Below the pieces are notes generated by a model. It did not search any database and was not told the DNA's origin. It saw nothing but the letters and a program-made list of their open reading frames with translations. The position numbers were made by a program, and so were the translations under genes. Positions 3,368-55,635 of a stretch of 64,000 nt of DNA are shown here, in pieces. The stretch covers positions 64,001 through 128,000 of the IMG/VR virus record IMGVR_UViG_3300025009_000051; one strand, given 5' to 3'. The first letter of the stretch is position 1; each line of letters starts with the position of its first letter. The stretch is from a virus.

Positions 3368-3973
3368 ATGAAAGAATTATTAACATCTGAAATAGTACAA
3401 ATAAGAGTATCTGCTCAATTAATCAATGAATCCAAATTACAAAATAATGGAAGATTAATATTAAGAGGAGTAATTCTTCAAAGAGCAAATGCAAAAAATG
3501 CTAATGGAAGAATATATCCAAAACCGGTATTATTGAGAGAAGCAAATAAATATCAAAAAAACTATATCTCAATAAATAACGCCATTGGGGAATTGGATCA
3601 TCCTGACTCATCTACAATTTCTTTAAGTCGCGGTGCATTAAATGTAGTTAAGATGTGGTGGGAAGGCGACGATTTAAAAGGAGATGTTGAAGTATTAACT
3701 AATCTTCCAAATGGGAAAATCCTGGAAGGTTACCTTCTGCACGGAATAACTGTTGGTATTTCAAGTAGAGGATTGGGGTCAGTAAAAGAATCTGCAAATA
3801 ATACAGTTGAAGTTCAAGATGATTTTGATCTTGTCGCTTTTGATTGTGTGAGTACTCCTTCAACTCAAGGAGCATATATGAGATTGACAGAAGGAAAAAA
3901 TATGAACGCTGTTAATGAATATACTAAAGCATTAGAAACTTTGAACCAACTAATTGATGAAATTATATTTTAA
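3368..3973 (+). CDS. gp21: Prohead core maturation protease (T4 gp21-like)
   Basis: NANGRIYP, GELDHP, GISSRGLGS, FDCVSTPSTQGAYM motifs. Confidence 0.92.
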   Translation: MKELLTSEIVQIRVSAQLINESKLQNNGRLILRGVILQRANAKNANGRIYPKPVLLREANKYQKNYISINNAIGELDHPDSSTISLSRGALNVVKMWWEGDDLKGDVEVLTNLPNGKILEGYLLHGITVGISSRGLGSVKESANNTVEVQDDFDLVAFDCVSTPSTQGAYMRLTEGKNMNAVNEYTKALETLNQLIDEIIF

Positions 3974-36046: not shown

Positions 36047-36721
36047 ATGAAAACAGAAAACGAAAAATGGTATTGCCCAGTATGTAAATCAGAAGTGGTT
36101 TATGAAAAGCACAGAAATTGTCAAACATTAGATGAGCACGTTTGCGATCCAAATGGAACTCCTTCATCAAAACCAACTTATCATTGTAGCAATCCAAAAT
36201 GTATTTGTAATAAGCAAAAAGTTTTTTGGGATTGGTATGGTGACATGTACGGGGGGTTTAAAATTCCAGACACTACCTTTATAAATGGTAATGATTCTCC
36301 TTTTGGTTCTCACTCAAGAAAACAAAATGTTGAAATTTACAAGAAAGGCTTACCGAGACAAAAATATTTATCTCCTTGGTGGACTCTTAAACTTTGGCAA
36401 CCAATGATTGAATATCATTATAAATCCAATACAGATGGGGAAGTATTAAAGAAATGGACAAAGATTGAATTCCTCAAAAAAACTGCTGGATTCGATAATA
36501 AATATTGTACTCATGTTTCTTTGTGGAGTCACACTTTAAATTTCTTATTGAAGAATGCAAAAAGACATTACAGAACAAACCAAATTGAAAGGCTATTCAA
36601 AAAATCAAACAATCGTGATTTTATATATAGGTTTGCAGAAAAGCTTGTTATACTTCTTTATTTACGAACTTATTTAAAGGAAGGAAAAAAATTGGATAAT
36701 AAACCAGATTTTCGTTGGTAA
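36047..36721 (+). CDS. Hypothetical protein with a Cys/His-rich N-terminus
   Basis: CPVC...HVC...HCSNPKC. Confidence 0.55.
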   Translation: MKTENEKWYCPVCKSEVVYEKHRNCQTLDEHVCDPNGTPSSKPTYHCSNPKCICNKQKVFWDWYGDMYGGFKIPDTTFINGNDSPFGSHSRKQNVEIYKKGLPRQKYLSPWWTLKLWQPMIEYHYKSNTDGEVLKKWTKIEFLKKTAGFDNKYCTHVSLWSHTLNFLLKNAKRHYRTNQIERLFKKSNNRDFIYRFAEKLVILLYLRTYLKEGKKLDNKPDFRW

Positions 36722-36768
36722 AAATAAATTTTGTAATCTTAATTTTTTTAGTTATAATTCTTGCATAT

Positions 36769-36900
36769 AAAACAAAATAGGGCCGAGTAGGTCCGAATTA
36801 ACGCCTTTGGAGAGTAACTCGTTGGAGCCTCATTGAATTAGGAAAAATGAATATAAAGAAATTTATATGAAATTTAATATTATGTTTTCGTTAAACTAAT
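36769..36900 (+). ncRNA. Orphan TnpB omegaRNA-like scaffold plus a distinct guide (non-autonomous IS200/605 right-end copy)
   Basis: About 92 of 110 nt identical by hand alignment to 51111-51220; stems preserved; intergenic with no tnpB beside it. Confidence 0.8.
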
Positions 36901-36903
36901 AAA

Positions 36904-37347
36904 ATGAAACACAAAATCAATTCAGGTAAACTTCCTTTCTATATCGAATCTTTCGAAGTAGAAAAATCTTCTGTTCATATTTCATTTGAAACCTATACTT
37001 GTAAATGGTTAATAGATGGAATTAAAACAGAATATAATATCTTTGAATATCGCATTACTTCTTTATTTGATCTTACTGAAATCGAAGCAATGGATTTAGT
37101 TCAACCAATTATGATTGAGAAAGGAGAAATTATAGACGATGTGACAGGTGAACAATTAAAAGAAGATATGCTCATTGGATTTGAAAATTATATGAAAAAA
37201 CCTAAGCATGCGAATATTATGCATTTTAATTCTGCAATAGATTCTCTAAAATCTTTAATTCAATATGAATATTCAGAATATGATGATTCAAAAAATTATT
37301 TATTGATTATACCAAAACAGTTTAAAAATGGAAATTCTACCACATGA
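36904..37347 (+). CDS. Hypothetical protein
   Basis: 147-aa ORF. Confidence 0.5.
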   Translation: MKHKINSGKLPFYIESFEVEKSSVHISFETYTCKWLIDGIKTEYNIFEYRITSLFDLTEIEAMDLVQPIMIEKGEIIDDVTGEQLKEDMLIGFENYMKKPKHANIMHFNSAIDSLKSLIQYEYSEYDDSKNYLLIIPKQFKNGNSTT

Positions 37348-48903: not shown

Positions 48904-49782
48904 TTACTTTCTTACTCCTGAACTTCTTCCACTATTTGAATTACCGGAATTACTTCTATTATTATTGGTATTCGTGTTTATATTAAAATTAGAATTATTA
49001 TTTGAATTAGTATTTCTATTATAATTTGTAGAAGAATTTGTATTGGTAGAATAGTTAGAATTTGAATTACTGTAATTTGGTTTTACATTTGTCGTCCTAT
49101 TTGAATTAGAGTAATTATAATTTGGTTTTGTTGTATTGTTTGGTCTGACATAATTATTTTGATTATTCTGATTTGTGTTGGTATTTATTCTATTTTGGTT
49201 TGTAGTATTATTTGTTGATATTCTATTATGATTATTGTTTGTCGTTATATTATTTGAGTTTGTTCTAATCACATTATTTCTATTATCTGAATTAACTGTT
49301 TTATATTCGTGATTTGGTCTGATTGCATCATTTCTAACAATATTATTTCTTTCTCCTACATTTGTTCTATATCTATTTCCATAAGAAGAATAATTCTGAT
49401 AATAATTGTGATAATTGTAATTATAATAACCATTATAATATCCATTCCAATAACCATTATAATATCCATTCCAATAATTTTCATAATAATACCAATTGTA
49501 ATAAGAATATGAATAATAGTAAGAAGGATAATAATAAGTTGGATAATACCAATAATCATAAAAATAATAATCAAAATAAATATAATCTCTATGAAATCTA
49601 TCTATTCTTGAATTATAAGAAGAATAATTATAAATGTAAATGTCTACATCAGATTGATTTGTTTCTACATATATTGTGTCATTATGTTCTGGATAAGAAT
49701 CATCATAATATTGAACTACTTGAGTGGTCATACAAGAACTCAGAATAAATATTATACTGAGTAATAAGAATAATTTTTTCAT
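48904..49782 (-). CDS. Lipoprotein with Tyr-rich and Asn/Ser/Arg-rich low-complexity regions
   Basis: Lipobox LSSC; YWNGYYNG repeats; N-rich tail. Confidence 0.75.
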   Translation of the reverse strand: MKKLFLLLSIIFILSSCMTTQVVQYYDDSYPEHNDTIYVETNQSDVDIYIYNYSSYNSRIDRFHRDYIYFDYYFYDYWYYPTYYYPSYYYSYSYYNWYYYENYWNGYYNGYWNGYYNGYYNYNYHNYYQNYSSYGNRYRTNVGERNNIVRNDAIRPNHEYKTVNSDNRNNVIRTNSNNITTNNNHNRISTNNTTNQNRINTNTNQNNQNNYVRPNNTTKPNYNYSNSNRTTNVKPNYSNSNSNYSTNTNSSTNYNRNTNSNNNSNFNINTNTNNNRSNSGNSNSGRSSGVRK

Positions 49783-49982
49783 TTGATTTAATTTTAATTG
49801 GTTATAATATTATATAAACAAAAAACGTACAAATATTTATTCTTTGTACGTTTTATTCATTTGTATTATATTAATTTAACGAAATTATACAAAAATATAT
49901 TGATTTATATAAATTTATTGTTTGAAAAAAATTAGGTTCTTTTTTTATTTTTTATAGTTATATGTATAAAAAGAATGTATAA

Positions 49983-51176
49983 ATGTTAAAAGCAATTAAA
50001 ATAAGAATATATCCAAATCAAGAACAAATGAATTATATAAATAATTTATTAGGATCTGCAAGATTTGTTTATAACAACTGCTTGGCATTTAAGATTGATT
50101 CTTATAACAACGAAAAGAAAAATGTTGGATTCGCTGAATTAGGTAGATATTTGACTGAATTGAAACAGAAAGAAGAATTTATTTGGTTAAAAGATGTACA
50201 TGCTAAGGTCTTGCAGCAATCTCTAATTAATCTAAATCAAGCTTATTCTAATTTTTTTAAAAATGGATTTGGATTTCCTAATTTCAAGAGTAGGAAAAGC
50301 TACAAGCAATCTTGTAGATTTCCGAAAGATGCAATTGGTAAGATTGAAGAAAATAAAATAACTTTGATTAAACAATTAAAAAATATTCCATTTAGATGCT
50401 CTGAAAGAGATAAAAATTATTTGAACTCTCATCAAGAAAATATTCATTCTGCGACACTCTTAAAAACTAAAACAAATAAATATTATCTTTCAATTTTAAT
50501 TGATTTTGAGTTAAATAAAAAATTAAAAGAAACAGAAAAAATCATTGGAATTGATCTTGGAATTAAAAATTTTATTGTAACTTCTGAGAATGAAAAAATT
50601 GAAAATATTAAAATTATTAGAAACAATCAAGAAAAATTAAAAAAATTACATCAAAATTTATCAAAGAAGAAAAACGGATCAAAAAATAAAGAGAAAGCAA
50701 GGATCAAATTGGCCAGATTCAACGAAAAATTAAACAACAAAAAAGAGTTTTATTTGCATCAAATATCAAATCAATTATTAGATGAAAACCAAGTCATAAT
50801 AATGGAAGATTTAGATATTAAGAGCATGCTTCAAAATCATCAATTAGCTCGAAGTATCCAAGAATTGTCTTTATATACATTTAAATCAATCTTGAAATAC
50901 AAAGCTAAATGGTATAATAGAGACATCATTGAAATCAATAAATTCTTTCCTTCGTCAAAATTATGTTCTTCTTGTGGTTACAAGAAAGATGATTTAGAAT
51001 TAAAAGACAGAAATTGGACCTGTCCAGAATGTGGAGCAGAACATGAAAGAGATTTAAATGCAGCTAAAAATATTTTGAAAGAAGGAAAGAGAATATTAGA
51101 AATAAAAGAAAACAAAATAGGGCTGAGTAGGCCCGAATCAACGCTTGTGGAGAGCAACTCATTAGAGTCTCGTTGA
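49983..51176 (+). CDS. tnpB: TnpB RNA-guided endonuclease (IS200/IS605 OrfB) with an intact catalytic triad
   Basis: HTH KIRIYPN; RuvC-I IGIDLG, RuvC-II IMEDL, Zn ribbon CSSCG...CPECG, RuvC-III RDLNAA. Confidence 0.95.
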   Translation: MLKAIKIRIYPNQEQMNYINNLLGSARFVYNNCLAFKIDSYNNEKKNVGFAELGRYLTELKQKEEFIWLKDVHAKVLQQSLINLNQAYSNFFKNGFGFPNFKSRKSYKQSCRFPKDAIGKIEENKITLIKQLKNIPFRCSERDKNYLNSHQENIHSATLLKTKTNKYYLSILIDFELNKKLKETEKIIGIDLGIKNFIVTSENEKIENIKIIRNNQEKLKKLHQNLSKKKNGSKNKEKARIKLARFNEKLNNKKEFYLHQISNQLLDENQVIIMEDLDIKSMLQNHQLARSIQELSLYTFKSILKYKAKWYNRDIIEINKFFPSSKLCSSCGYKKDDLELKDRNWTCPECGAEHERDLNAAKNILKEGKRILEIKENKIGLSRPESTLVESNSLESR

Positions 51177-51240
51177 AACAAGAAAAAATTCATATAAAGA
51201 TTTTTATATGAAATTTAATACTATATTGACTATAATCTCT
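51111..51240 (+). ncRNA. Cognate omegaRNA/right end overlapping the tnpB 3' end
   Basis: Stem gggct/ggccc, tcaacg/cgttga pairing, terminal hairpin ttcatataaa-gatt-tttatatgaa at 51189-51212; boundary approximate. Confidence 0.75.
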
Positions 51241-51280
51241 AATCTGACTCAAAAGATGTGTGGCACGATCGCCAAATTGT

Positions 51281-51580
51281 CTAATACAGATATAAATCTA
51301 AAACTTCGTCTGAACAAGGTACACATTTTAAAATATTTTCTTTTGAAATTAATTTATCTCCAGAATTTCTAACATATTCTTCATTAAACTTGGACCAGTG
51401 GCAATAAATTGCCCAATCATTTCCATATCCCTTTACCGCAACCCATCTTAATTCTCCCCCAGCTCGTGTCATAAATAATCCTTCTGGACTATTTGGTAAA
51501 ACTCCTGTTCCTATTTCTTCTCCAGGTAAAATTTTATTAAATTCTTCTAAGGTTAATTGTTTCATGTCTTTATTATTCAT
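51281..51580 (-). CDS. Hypothetical phage protein
   Basis: LRWVAVKG...DWAIYC motif. Confidence 0.55.
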   Translation of the reverse strand: MNNKDMKQLTLEEFNKILPGEEIGTGVLPNSPEGLFMTRAGGELRWVAVKGYGNDWAIYCHWSKFNEEYVRNSGDKLISKENILKCVPCSDEVLDLYLY

Positions 51581-51740
51581 ATTTTATTCCTCTCCTTTTT
51601 AATTCATCTATTCCTTCATTCATTAATTTAAAAGAATTGCTACGATATTCCTCTAATTCAGGCTTTCCAGTGCACAAACTGAATACTTCTTTAAGCTTAA
51701 CTGTAAGATCAATTAAACTCGATGTTGGTAATGTTTCCAT
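51573..51740 (-). CDS. Hypothetical protein (start corrected to 51740)
   Basis: Follows a host-type promoter. Confidence 0.5.
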   Translation of the reverse strand: METLPTSSLIDLTVKLKEVFSLCTGKPELEEYRSNSFKLMNEGIDELKRRGIKYE

Positions 51741-51766
51741 GTCTTTATTATTTAATGTTCGTTTTA

Positions 51767-51798
51767 CAAATATATAGATAATAAATGAAAGAAACAAA
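51767..51798 (-). promoter_or_regulatory. Bacteroidota sigma-A type promoter
   Basis: Minus strand TTTG-N20-TATATTTG. Confidence 0.8.
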
Positions 51799-51803
51799 TA
51801 ATT

Positions 51804-51971
51804 TTATTGATCTTCTTCGGTTAATATGTTTAAATCTGTTAAAAAATTTTCCACCTTCTCACATGATTCGCCAAGCAAGAAAAGGTAGGTGGCATCATAA
51901 ATTAAAGTTTTCATTTGTTCGCTTGTTGCACTACTAAATGCTGTTTCTAATTGTTTTGTATCAATTTTCAT
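51804..51971 (-). CDS. 55-aa protein, paralog A (not in the ORF track)
   Basis: MKIDTKQLETAFSSATSEQMKTLIYDA...NFLTDLNIL. Confidence 0.6.
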   Translation of the reverse strand: MKIDTKQLETAFSSATSEQMKTLIYDATYLFLLGESCEKVENFLTDLNILTEEDQ

Positions 51972-52043
51972 AACTAATATATTAGGTTAATAAATATATT
52001 GAATTATAGTAAAAATCTTTGAAAAAACCGAATAATTATCCGC

Positions 52044-52205
52044 CTATTTTTTAATTAAAATTTGTAAATCAATTAGAAAATTTCTATTGCTTTCTGAGGC
52101 GTCTCCAGATAAATAATTATTTACAGCATTGTAAATTAAAGTTTTCAGATGCTCACTTTTTTCAATTTCAAATATTGTTCGTAATAATGTGGTATTAATT
52201 TTCAT
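52044..52205 (-). CDS. 53-aa protein, paralog B (not in the ORF track)
   Basis: MKINTTLLRTIFEIEKSEHLKTLIYNA...NFLIDLQIL. Confidence 0.6.
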   Translation of the reverse strand: MKINTTLLRTIFEIEKSEHLKTLIYNAVNNYLSGDASESNRNFLIDLQILIKK

Positions 52206-52224
52206 AATTCTTATTTTTTAGTTA

Positions 52225-52443
52225 TTAAACAGACTTTTGCAACACTAACCAACTTTCTGGTAAGAACTGACGTATATTGTCAGCATCATACATATAAAAC
52301 CCTTCTTCGTTATAATATGCTTTGGTACTGAAATGAGCGAAAGTTGCTTCTCCGTCTGGAATTAAAAAATAAGCACGTTTCATAACATCGGATATATCTA
52401 ATTCCGATACGTGTCCTAATAAAGTGTTTTCGTTTTCTGGCAT
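52225..52443 (-). CDS. Hypothetical protein
   Basis: 72-aa ORF. Confidence 0.45.
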   Translation of the reverse strand: MPENENTLLGHVSELDISDVMKRAYFLIPDGEATFAHFSTKAYYNEEGFYMYDADNIRQFLPESWLVLQKSV

Positions 52444-52592
52444 TTTTCTATTTATTTAAGTTTATAGTAATTAAAAAATCTGAACTAAAATATATCCAAG
52501 AACAGTTAATAAATATATTGAATTATAGTAAAAATTTTTGAAAAAAACAAATAAAAAATAAAAAAATTATATTTATTTAAAACACTATAAAA

Positions 52593-52889
52593 ATGGCAAA
52601 AACAAAATTAAAATTCAGTGATTGGAGAATATTTGAATTCTTAAAAGAAGATAATGGTAGATTTAGCTCTGCAAGATTATTTGCTTTTTTTATAATATTT
52701 AATGCTATTCTTGAATGGCAAAATGCTATTTGGAAAAGTATAGCTTGGACTCCTTCTTGGGAAGAAATATCATTGATTGCAGGTGTATTAGGATTTAAAA
52801 TAGTTCAAAAATCATTTGAAGAAAAGAAAAGTAACAATAATATTCCTACTAAAGAGGATAAAGAAGAAGCTGAAGAAGTTAAAATCTAA
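52593..52889 (+). CDS. Putative holin-like membrane protein
   Basis: Two hydrophobic helices, charged C-terminus, phage-type promoter, same operon as the amidase. Confidence 0.45.
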   Translation: MAKTKLKFSDWRIFEFLKEDNGRFSSARLFAFFIIFNAILEWQNAIWKSIAWTPSWEEISLIAGVLGFKIVQKSFEEKKSNNNIPTKEDKEEAEEVKI

Positions 52890-52924
52890 AAAATAAACAT
52901 AAATAAACATAAATAATTATAGCT

Positions 52925-53491
52925 ATGGAAAACAAAAAAATCGTTCACTTTTATTATATTTTTAAAAATAATAATAAAATAAATTACATGGTGTCGTTTG
53001 AAGAAAATTCAGAAGATATAAAAGAAAAAATTTCAGATTGGGGCAAAAAAAATGGATTGACAATTTTAAAAATAGAAATTGTTGGATATTCTAATGGATT
53101 TAAAGAAGACACAGGCAATGCAAAAAAATTAGATAATTTAGCGCATAGAGAAGGAAAAAAAGAAGTAGAGAATTATAGAAAGAAAGACATGAATGAGCAA
53201 AAAATAAAAATCATGAAACCAGAATTAAAACTCAAATTACAAAAAATAATCAAAGAAGAATATCAAAAACTTCTTGCTGAAGATGATAGATGGATTCAAA
53301 AAGCAACTAAAGATTCTTCTAAAGGGAATTTACATAAAGCATTAGGAATACCAGTAGATGAGAAAATTGGTATTACAAGAATGAATAAAGAACTTGCTGC
53401 ATTGAAAAAGAAATATCCAGACGGGGGTTATTCTAAAGGAGATTTAAAATTACAACGAATGCTGCAGGCAGCCATAAATATGCAATCATAA
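52925..53491 (+). CDS. Probable internal head protein with an internal leader (ATG 53213)
   Basis: KLQKIIKEEYQKLLAE followed by WIQKA...KGNLHKALGIP. Confidence 0.5.
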   Translation: MENKKIVHFYYIFKNNNKINYMVSFEENSEDIKEKISDWGKKNGLTILKIEIVGYSNGFKEDTGNAKKLDNLAHREGKKEVENYRKKDMNEQKIKIMKPELKLKLQKIIKEEYQKLLAEDDRWIQKATKDSSKGNLHKALGIPVDEKIGITRMNKELAALKKKYPDGGYSKGDLKLQRMLQAAINMQS

Positions 53492-53514
53492 ATAAAAAAT
53501 AAAATAAAAAAGTC

Positions 53515-54165
53515 ATGAGCACAATCACAACTAAATCAATCGTGCAAATAAATTTTCCCGAGTCACAGTTCAAAAAAGTTATCACGGATAAGAATCAAAT
53601 CACACTTCACCATACAGTCAGTGGAGATAACGCACAAGGAGTTGCAGACTGGTGGAAATCAAATCCGGAGCGGGTGGCAACTTGTATTATCATTGAAAAA
53701 TCTGGTGTTCCATTCCAATGCTATAGCTCCCAATATTATGGGTATCATTTGGGCGTGAAAGCAGCTACCTTTAAAAAATATAATTTAGAATATAAATTGC
53801 TCGACATGTATTCGATAGGAGTCGAACTATGCTCTTGGGGAGGATTAGTTAAAAGAGGAGATAAATTTTATAATGCCTATGCTGGGGAAGTTAAAGCTAA
53901 AGATGTTATAGAAATGGATTATAGAGGATATAAATACTTTGATAAATATTCAGATGCACAAATAAATACCTTAAAGGAATTATTAATTTATTGGGGCAAA
54001 ACCTATGATATACCTTTAGACTATTCTGAAGATATGTGGGAATTTAATTTAGATGCCTTGAAGGGAGTTCCTGGAATTTATAGCCATACGAGTTATCGTG
54101 AAGATAAGAGTGATTTGTATCCAGATCCACGAATTATTGAAATGTTAAAATCGTTGAAAAAATAA
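53515..54165 (+). CDS. N-acetylmuramoyl-L-alanine amidase (Amidase_2), probable endolysin
   Basis: ITLHHT, SIGVELC, YSHT..R.DKSD..P. Confidence 0.85.
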   Translation: MSTITTKSIVQINFPESQFKKVITDKNQITLHHTVSGDNAQGVADWWKSNPERVATCIIIEKSGVPFQCYSSQYYGYHLGVKAATFKKYNLEYKLLDMYSIGVELCSWGGLVKRGDKFYNAYAGEVKAKDVIEMDYRGYKYFDKYSDAQINTLKELLIYWGKTYDIPLDYSEDMWEFNLDALKGVPGIYSHTSYREDKSDLYPDPRIIEMLKSLKK

Positions 54166-54175
54166 TTATGGTTGT

Positions 54176-54694
54176 ATGATTAAATTAAAATCATTATTAA
54201 AATTAAATGAAGTCGGCGATGCTTCGGCTCAAGCTTATCCTGTAAAAAATTTAGACCAGGTAATAGAATTGTTTAAAAATTCGGTTAAGATTAAATATGG
54301 AACTCACGATGAAATATTTTTTAAGACGAATTCAAATGACAGATACATTATAGATTTGAACATTACTCTGGAAAATAATAATAATTTTAATTTAGATATT
54401 TCATTTAGTACTTCAAATTCAATAGAAACCGGTTCCTACGATTATTCCTTAACAAATAAACCCAAAGAATTATTTAAGGTTATGTCAACCATTACAACTA
54501 TAATAAAAAAGATTGCAGAAGCAATCCCAGAAATAACTACAATATCATTTGAACCCGCTAAGAAGGAAAGTGAACAAGATACTTCCGCATTAAGAACAGA
54601 TAGGGCTAAACTATATATGGCATTTATTAAGAAGGCAGTTCCAAATGCAAGGGTAATGACTAATGGTTCTGAAATTACTATTAAGATAAGGTAG
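54176..54694 (+). CDS. Probable virion-packaged protein
   Basis: Leader MIKLKSLLKLNE; FKVMSTI...ISFEPAK...RAKLY. Confidence 0.5.
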   Translation: MIKLKSLLKLNEVGDASAQAYPVKNLDQVIELFKNSVKIKYGTHDEIFFKTNSNDRYIIDLNITLENNNNFNLDISFSTSNSIETGSYDYSLTNKPKELFKVMSTITTIIKKIAEAIPEITTISFEPAKKESEQDTSALRTDRAKLYMAFIKKAVPNARVMTNGSEITIKIR

Positions 54695-54726
54695 AATAAA
54701 TTTGATTAAATTTTTAAATAAAAATT

Positions 54727-55635
54727 ATGATAATATATAAAACAATCAATTTAATTAACGGTAAATTTTATATAGGAAAAGATTCAAAAAATAATCCCGA
54801 TTATTTTGGATCAGGAATAATTCTAAAAAAAGCTATTAAAAAATATGGTAAAGAAAATTTTAAAAAAGAAATTCTAGAATATTGTAATTCTGAAAAGGAA
54901 TTAGATCAAAAAGAAATATTTTGGATTAAAAAATTAAATTCCATTGAGAACGGATATAATATTGCTTTGGGAGGAACTGGAGGAGATACATTTACAAATA
55001 ATCCAAATAAAGAAAAAATTATTCAAAATTTAAGTCAAAAATTAACCGGAGGAAAGTTATCAGAAAAAACAAGAAAAAATATGAGTAATGGTAGAAAGGG
55101 AATGAAATTTTCAGAAGAACATAAACAAAATATAAGTAAAGCTCAAATAGGAATAAAATTTATATATAATATTAAAACAAGACAGATAAGAAAAGTAAAA
55201 AAGAACGAATTAGAAGAATTTTTATTAAATAATTCTGATTGGAAATTAGGAAAAGGAATTACATTAACTAAAGAACATAAAGAAAAATTAAATAACTCAA
55301 GAAGAGGCATAAAATCATCTAATGAGACAAAGCAAAAAATAAGTCAATCAAAAAAAGGAATCAAATTAACAGAAAAGCATAAACAAAATATAAGTATAGC
55401 CCTAACAGGTATAAAATTGTCAAATGAACACAGAAAAAATATGAGTATTTCTCATCAAGGAAAGAAAAGAAAACCTTTTAGCGAAGAAACAAAGAAAAAA
55501 ATGAGTAAAGCAGCTAAAAATAGGCCGGACGTTTCAGATGAAACTAAACAGAAATTAAGTGAAGCTAATAAAGGTAGAATACCTTGGAATAAAGGAATTC
55601 ATTATTCTAAAAATATTAAAGAAAATGAATTATAA
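54727..55635 (+). CDS. GIY-YIG homing endonuclease with NUMOD3 repeats
   Basis: IIYKTINLINGKFYIGKD...YFGSG...GYNI..GG; repeated SxExKxKxS. Confidence 0.9.
   Translation: MIIYKTINLINGKFYIGKDSKNNPDYFGSGIILKKAIKKYGKENFKKEILEYCNSEKELDQKEIFWIKKLNSIENGYNIALGGTGGDTFTNNPNKEKIIQNLSQKLTGGKLSEKTRKNMSNGRKGMKFSEEHKQNISKAQIGIKFIYNIKTRQIRKVKKNELEEFLLNNSDWKLGKGITLTKEHKEKLNNSRRGIKSSNETKQKISQSKKGIKLTEKHKQNISIALTGIKLSNEHRKNMSISHQGKKRKPFSEETKKKMSKAAKNRPDVSDETKQKLSEANKGRIPWNKGIHYSKNIKENEL

Follow-up and report, generated by a model that had tools for sequence, protein, structure and literature searches.

A predicted guide-RNA scaffold without a nuclease gene in a large phage

The window analysed here comprises 64,000 bases (positions 64001-128000) of an IMG/VR phage record that is 183.7 kb long and has a G+C content of 26%, and the same phage, 100% identical over the locus, was found in groundwater assemblies of run SRR1658472. 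The window contains a tnpB gene, whose element is referred to as copy A, and, between an ORF at 36047-36721 and another at 36904-37347, a 165-base intergenic stretch which, as judged from its sequence, is an intact copy of a TnpB guide-RNA scaffold (omegaRNA or reRNA) without a nuclease gene. This copy is referred to as O1 (Table 1). An earlier reading made from the sequence alone (the sequence-only reading) had proposed such an orphan scaffold at this place, and the proposal holds in that the copy is intact and has a fold backed by covariation. Its hand alignment of 36771-36879 with 51111-51220, at about 92/110 nt, was reproduced by global alignment with 92 identical positions of 109/110. The match between O1 and copy A has an E value of 4.5e-30 in a BLAST search within the genome and a local alignment score of 128, as compared to 16.8 +/- 2.7 (maximum 30) in 500 shuffles. 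The stretch 51111-51220 consists of the last 66 bases of the 397-aa ORF (49983-51176) and 44 bases beyond it. Absence of a tnpB gene before the orphan had also been claimed, and a tblastn search upstream of O1 indeed matches just 19 residues, which the scaffold itself overlaps.

Table 1. Positions of the cassettes O1 and O2 and of the tnpB element (copy A). Positions are those of the window except for O2, for which genome positions are given; CM, covariance model.
Feature	Position	Strand	Remarks
Left part of cassette O1	36719..36771	+	16-mer shared with O2, then promoter-like motifs
Orphan guide-RNA scaffold O1	36772..36883	+	CM score 99.9 bits, E about 1e-21
Putative guide of O1	36884..36903	+	20 bases from right end to ATG of ORF 36904-37347
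Left end of tnpB element (copy A)	49926..49982	+	probable; contains TATAGTTATA and one direct-repeat arm
tnpB, 397 aa	49983..51176	+	HTH_OrfB_IS605, OrfB_IS605 and Cas12f1-like TNB domains
Guide-RNA scaffold of copy A	51112..51224	+	overlaps last 65 bases of tnpB, extends to ...CTAT; CM score 106.4 bits
Putative guide of copy A	51225..51244	+	flank right after right end; identical in L116
Third copy O2	147439-147550 (genome)	-	outside the window; L002:1501-1612

O1 has, in 5' to 3' order, a 5' stem, a compact core resembling RAGATH-18 (36804-36844), a terminal hairpin and the right end. The right boundary, which had been given with an uncertainty of about 6 nt, is now settled by the family alignment: the right end of the family is ...CTAT, the flanks diverge from the next base onward, and the scaffold ends at 36883 in O1 (where it reads TTAT) and at 51224 in copy A (CTAT). 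A left end of O1 reaching into the upstream ORF was considered and rejected, because this ORF is conserved coding sequence through its end, its C-terminus being kept in the protein family. A Logan contig of this phage (L023, which ends at base 3757) breaks inside O1, 82 bases past the stop of the upstream gene, as is expected where a repeat cannot be crossed by assemblers.

A covariance-model search of the genome, for which the sequence-only reading had called, was performed with a model from the family alignment and finds exactly three copies in the 183.7-kb record, with 106, 102, and 100 bits, the next best match having 20 bits (E 0.24). The further copy, O2, is intergenic and lies between a small ORF that follows a topoisomerase II-like gene and a 491-aa ORF. 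Of the proposal that one nuclease is served by two guides, the single TnpB therefore stands, one intact gene being present in the record, whereas the number of cassettes is three and not two. The sequence that O1 and O2 have in common extends from a 16-mer up to the right end, with unrelated flanks at either side. The scaffolds are identical at 108/112 positions for O1 and O2, at 94/112 for O1 and copy A, and at 95/112 for O2 and copy A. At 8 columns in which O1 differs from copy A, both O1 and O2 show the majority state of the family and copy A shows a derived state. These 8 consensus states, which copy A has lost, rule out that O1 is a copy of the end of the resident element and indicate that O1 and O2 come from a sister lineage and are not derived from copy A.

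Fold of the scaffold and covariation

The substitutions between O1 and copy A had been described as mostly preserving structure, and every one of the changes listed at that time is present. Going from copy A to O1, in the first stem a G-C pair is replaced by G-U and a U-G pair by C-G, in the outer stem U-A is replaced by C-G, the inner CTC/GAG hairpin is unchanged, and the terminal hairpin keeps 7 pairs, with GAAA in place of GATT in its loop. In the outer stem of O1, two inner pairs have become U-U, which is the majority state across the family, and two outer pairs of the terminal hairpin are lost. When four helices were tested on an alignment of 47 sequences of the family, 9 of the 15 pairs had changed on both sides and 86% of the cells were paired. 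The observed values were attained in none of 500 shuffles, and slid controls gave values 4-6 times lower. The fold of the scaffold is maintained by compensatory changes.

The resident TnpB and the left edge of its element

The resident TnpB aligns over its full length with ISDra2 TnpB, the nearest solved structure (E 2e-64), and in alignment with active TnpB its RuvC D/E/D residues and the cysteines of its zinc finger (CxxC pairs) are intact. As the RuvC catalytic residues are all present, an identity as TldR, the nuclease-dead TnpB repressor, is ruled out. The phage had been said to possess a single TnpB, and one with all RuvC residues is what the record contains; no second tnpB, Y1 transposase, or serine-recombinase tnpA was found in the 183.7 kb, which are about 79% complete, and the missing 20% or so of the genome might contain a second tnpB that is cognate to the cassettes.

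A direct repeat of 9-10 bases flanks the tnpB gene of copy A, with arms at 49966-49975 and 51102-51110, and a deletion between these arms would be predicted to create the junction that is found in orphans. The left edge of copy A was put near 49926 because the likeness to L116, a 291.9-kb scaffold from the same project (L116:1-9215 compared with window 49800-55180), stops there. L116 is 100% identical from about 51000 rightwards, over at least 4.2 kb, shows 83-92% identity over the first 1 kb of tnpB, and is unrelated left of about 49926, where a tRNA gene is found together with 1.2 kb of non-coding DNA whose G+C content reaches 36%. Either the assembly of L116 is chimeric across the repeat or a recombination or conversion tract ends inside tnpB, and the edge is placed alike in both cases. 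Further to the left, at 49822-49856, between a divergent gene (48904-49782) and the tnpB element, there is a perfect 9-bp G+C-containing hairpin with flanking A and T runs, which looks like a bidirectional terminator.

Left parts of the cassettes and the genes that follow them

The 16-mer at 36719-36734 overlaps the stop codon of the upstream ORF and has an exact match in O2, where it overlaps the stop codon of the upstream gene as well; the genome has no other occurrence of it. Between the 16-mer and the scaffold there are about 37 bases with poor conservation. The left part of O1 contains TTGTAA-16-TATAAT at 36731-36758, and the similar motifs that had been noticed before the orphan and before tnpB were located as TTTAGTTATA at 36747-36756 and TATAGTTATA at 49954-49963, respectively. 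The promoter-like motifs of O1, including the sigma-70-like match, are equally frequent in shuffles and thus at chance level. A promoter motif of the Bacteroidetes type is perfect before O2 and fits poorly at O1; it is about threefold enriched in the genome (31 versus about 10) and is taken only as a hint. The right end of O1 is complete. Comparison of the left parts with the left end of copy A gave weak similarity (p about 0.02 for O1 and 0.08 for O2). Left-end alignments of copy A with the related contigs L036 and L039 were not significant.

The position of the cassettes raises the question whether they act as mobile promoters or 5' leaders of the next gene, with the scaffold as a passenger. 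The distance from the end of the cassette to the following ATG is 20 bases for O1 (ATG at 36904) and 27 bases for O2, each cassette has the orientation of the gene after it, and no terminator lies between, all of which would suit such a role. However, a co-oriented ORF is found within 80 bases after 4 of 14 orphans as compared to 19 of 46 linked copies, which is no enrichment, and a function as promoter or leader leaves the conservation of the scaffold unexplained. This reading is considered very improbable, the least probable of those discussed here.

Putative guides and insertion sites

The flanks of O1, O2, and copy A are three different sequences, and the difference between the 3' flanks of O1 and copy A that the sequence-only reading had pointed out is thereby confirmed. 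Within the phage record, the guides have no significant second match, and their best matches are at about chance level except for that of O1. For the 20-base flank of O1, the best non-self match in the record has 16/20 identical positions and is located some 100 bases before tnpB, on the opposite strand. The O2 flank (L002:1472-1500) aligns with the same stretch of the window (49859-49912), on the same strand and with a 3-base gap, and two other loci score equally. When 18-mers of the O1 and O2 guides were compared with IMG/VR, 1 and 6 matches were obtained, respectively, which is the number expected by chance; none of them extends, and they have no 5' motif in common.

These results bear on the suggestion that the phage employs a domesticated multi-guide system, in which several dispersed cassettes would supply one TnpB with guides for cutting phage competitors, the host, or a rival element. 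If true, such a use of several guides would be a natural intermediate on the way from transposon nucleases to CRISPR-like systems. The combination of one intact nuclease with three scaffolds that each have a guide of their own, the promoter-like left parts, and the location of the best O1 match shortly before the resident tnpB are compatible with it. So is the contig L093, which likewise combines a tnpB (with its own divergent scaffold) and an orphan of another, consensus-type subtype 1.9 kb away. However, the matches in IMG/VR correspond to chance expectation, the 16/20 match within the genome is mismatched at guide positions 1 and 2 and stands out by a small margin (score 27 versus 24), and each guide is by construction the cassette's own flank, as it would be in any selfish element. 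A domesticated system of this type thus appears very improbable, and the reading of O1 as a weapon, which the sequence-only reading had offered as an option, finds no support, as no significant match to either guide was obtained from the phage or from IMG/VR.

Each cassette is bracketed by a short direct repeat, which has 8 bases in the case of O1 and 11 in that of O2. When the ends of O2 are joined at its repeat, the left end becomes collinear with the region upstream of copy A, so O2 may be a circularly permuted insertion. In a search for cassette-free alleles, no relatives of the flanking genes were found in IMG/VR, and relatives of the upstream gene from the protein database (71% and 53% identity) were discarded as empty sites because the genes downstream of them are not related. 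At least 8 independent insertions of one subfamily have AGTAT before the left end, and the right end there is ACTAT. As a target-adjacent motif for the present copies AGTAT was rejected, since it is not found before O1, before O2, or before the left edge that L116 suggests for copy A. The three left edges have no motif in common before them, which makes intact mobility doubtful.

Relatives of the scaffold and loss of tnpB

With a search pattern drawn from the conserved 5' half of the scaffold, 6 loci were obtained from IMG/VR and 69 from JGI metagenomes. In about 45 loci of the family the scaffold comes directly after a tnpB that is 50-66% identical to the window's, and the scaffold is common to some 70 relatives, a large metagenomic family of about 390-aa TnpBs. 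A serine-recombinase gene is located just upstream of tnpB in 8 related loci (tnpA of L077 matches Pfam Resolvase with E 2e-19) and the scaffold family is therefore considered to be of the IS607 type; the phage's own element consists of tnpB without such an upstream tnpA. In comparison with RAGATH-18 (RF03064), the core of O1 obtained 21.7 bits and that of O2 26 bits, both below the gathering threshold of 44.9, and copy A gave no match at E <= 1. RAGATH-18 shares the outer stem and bulge motifs with the scaffold, and its inner hairpin differs in length (14 nt in the scaffold versus about 44).

Copies without tnpB are common in this family: out of 75 hits, about 17 lack the gene, or about a fifth, as counted where the sequence before the scaffold was 270 bases or longer, a share that says nothing on truncated copies because the pattern demanded the 5' half of the scaffold. 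Loss of tnpB is graded from stubs to complete absence. Residues 128-397 are kept in L032, residues 276-390 in L101, and about 20 first and 13 last codons in L061. L057 corresponds to L072 minus the ORF, so that the promoter region of the left end abuts the scaffold, and the orphans L088 and L081 have retained a long left end; in these relatives the presence of two transposon ends with no ORF is clear. Of the two origins that the sequence-only reading had left open, the non-autonomous element fits these data, since other contigs show the same architecture in about 17 instances, which cover all degrees of tnpB loss. With the covariance model, orphan scaffolds score 96-124 bits and linked ones 90-128 bits.

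Such a series also invites the view that O1 and O2 are inert relics, that is, recent dead remnants of a lost sister element which neither express nor load a guide RNA and are intact only because they are young. Decaying transposons typically show series of internal deletions, two hairpin pairs of O1 are gone and its right end is mutated, and no target, recognisable target-adjacent motif, or transposase turned up in the searches made. However, O1 and O2 are 96% identical in the scaffold and about 62% identical (23/37) in the adjoining bases between the 16-mer and the scaffold, all of their differences are confined to unpaired positions, and, as mentioned, orphans elsewhere score like linked copies. 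We therefore regard an inert state as unlikely, although it deserves to be taken seriously.

Comparison with known systems

Gene-less elements of the IS200/IS605 group, the PATE-like elements of Geobacillus stearothermophilus, encode omegaRNAs (Meers et al., 10.1101/2023.03.14.532601). The cassettes described here resemble them in being protein-less transposon ends that occur in several copies with differing flanks and whose scaffold would need a TnpB in trans. In contrast to PATE-like elements, the relatives of the present cassettes are linked to a serine-recombinase (IS607-type) tnpA, the cassettes reside in a lytic-looking large phage with no transposase in the record, and neither subterminal palindromes nor a target-adjacent motif were recognised in them.

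RAGATH-18-derived RNAs are guide RNAs of IS607 TnpBs, as described for ISFba1, and 36% of RAGATH-18 RNAs are not adjacent to TnpB (Ren et al., PMC11061315). The phage system is similar to ISFba1 with respect to the size of TnpB (about 390 aa) and the order of RNA parts, namely 5' flank, RAGATH-18 core, 3' flank, and guide. It differs in that the core has 41 nt instead of about 73 and obtains 21.7-26 bits as compared to a gathering score of 44.9, that the scaffold overlaps the end of tnpB, that the right end is ...CTAT and not G-rich, and that the phage TnpB is nearer to ISDra2 TnpB (E 2e-64) than to 8iaz (E 2e-39).

A mini-IS of CboIStron/IS607 can be mobilised by TnpA in trans when it has ends of just 40 and 60 bp, and the right end of CboIStron resembles, without being identical to, the target-adjacent motif (Zedaveinyte et al., 10.1101/2023.11.20.567912). 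The pair of AGTAT on the left and ACTAT at the right end in the subfamily mentioned above recalls TGGG versus TCGG in CboIStron. Unlike CboIStron, the phage cassettes have neither a group I intron nor a GG core at their ends, and the phage record has no TnpA. TldR guide-RNA systems occur in prophages and have guides aimed at non-transposon targets (10.1101/2023.11.30.569447). They were considered as a likeness because they are phage-carried, involve domesticated TnpB relatives, and have targets other than transposons; they are nuclease-dead and their RNA is adjacent, whereas the phage described here has dispersed RNA copies and a TnpB with intact RuvC residues. TnpB in phages is already known (PMC12607003). 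O1 is thus an instance of a published phenomenon, that of gene-less RNA elements and RAGATH-18 RNAs away from TnpB, and it is notable for its location in a large phage and for its compact scaffold.

O1 as a probable non-autonomous derivative of a TnpB element

The reading that we favour, and consider somewhat probable, is that O1 is a mini-derivative lacking tnpB, and that any RNA made from it would be loaded in trans by the one TnpB of the record, recognise the sequence at the side of the cassette, and serve the retention or spread of the cassette itself. O1 would be derived from an element of the IS607/IS1341 type, with a left part of about 52 bases fused directly to a complete right-end scaffold of 112 bases, and the 20 bases of local DNA after the scaffold would function as guide. 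The ORF might have been removed by an internal deletion between the arms of the direct repeat. The cassette may be transcribed rightwards from its left part, and by analogy with other systems, for which use in trans is established, the resulting RNA could be taken up in trans by the resident TnpB: tnpB and its RNA are functional from separate promoters (10.1101/2023.11.20.567912), and in the IS605 group gene-less elements encode such guide RNAs for use in trans (10.1101/2023.03.14.532601). The complex of TnpB and RNA would then recognise the cassette-adjacent sequence in genomes without the cassette, and the outcome would be retention or spread of the cassette by homing, not a function for the phage. 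Compatibility of O1 with the resident TnpB is putative, since 18/112 positions differ from copy A, two hairpin pairs are lost, and the right end is TTAT instead of CTAT.

If the cassette RNAs are loaded in trans, the phage would offer a compact natural case in which one TnpB is served by three separately encoded guides, and this would bear on the transition from single-guide transposon nucleases to multi-guide systems and on homing between co-infecting phages. It is also conceivable, although quite improbable, that a large phage with one active TnpB employs in trans at least two promoter-driven cassettes of another scaffold lineage, for example against co-infecting relatives that are free of the cassettes (marker exclusion) or against a rival element. 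Apart from these readings, the family alignment yields a short scaffold of about 112 nt, backed by covariation, for a TnpB of about 397 aa.

Other arrangements of the scaffold

Some loci of the family show arrangements of another type. In four contigs from different samples (L027, L095, L051, L056) a 14-base motif, ACGAAAACCAAGTT, precedes the orphan scaffold at a distance of 30-40 bases; copies linked to tnpB do not have this motif, which may be a different left partner, for example another RNA or element. At L035:700-810, an orphan scaffold without terminal hairpin is immediately preceded by an inverted right end, which places two elements head to head. A second, weaker scaffold match is present near a tnpB-linked copy at L067:7641-7826, in a contig that has a second, 35%-identical tnpB, and another second match (35 bits) is found at L068:752-827, 340 bases after the first scaffold. 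The IMG/VR records G002 and G003, which correspond to L027 and L030 and contain orphan scaffolds, are rated 2-3% complete at 17-27 kb, a rating that implies comparison with very large viral genomes.
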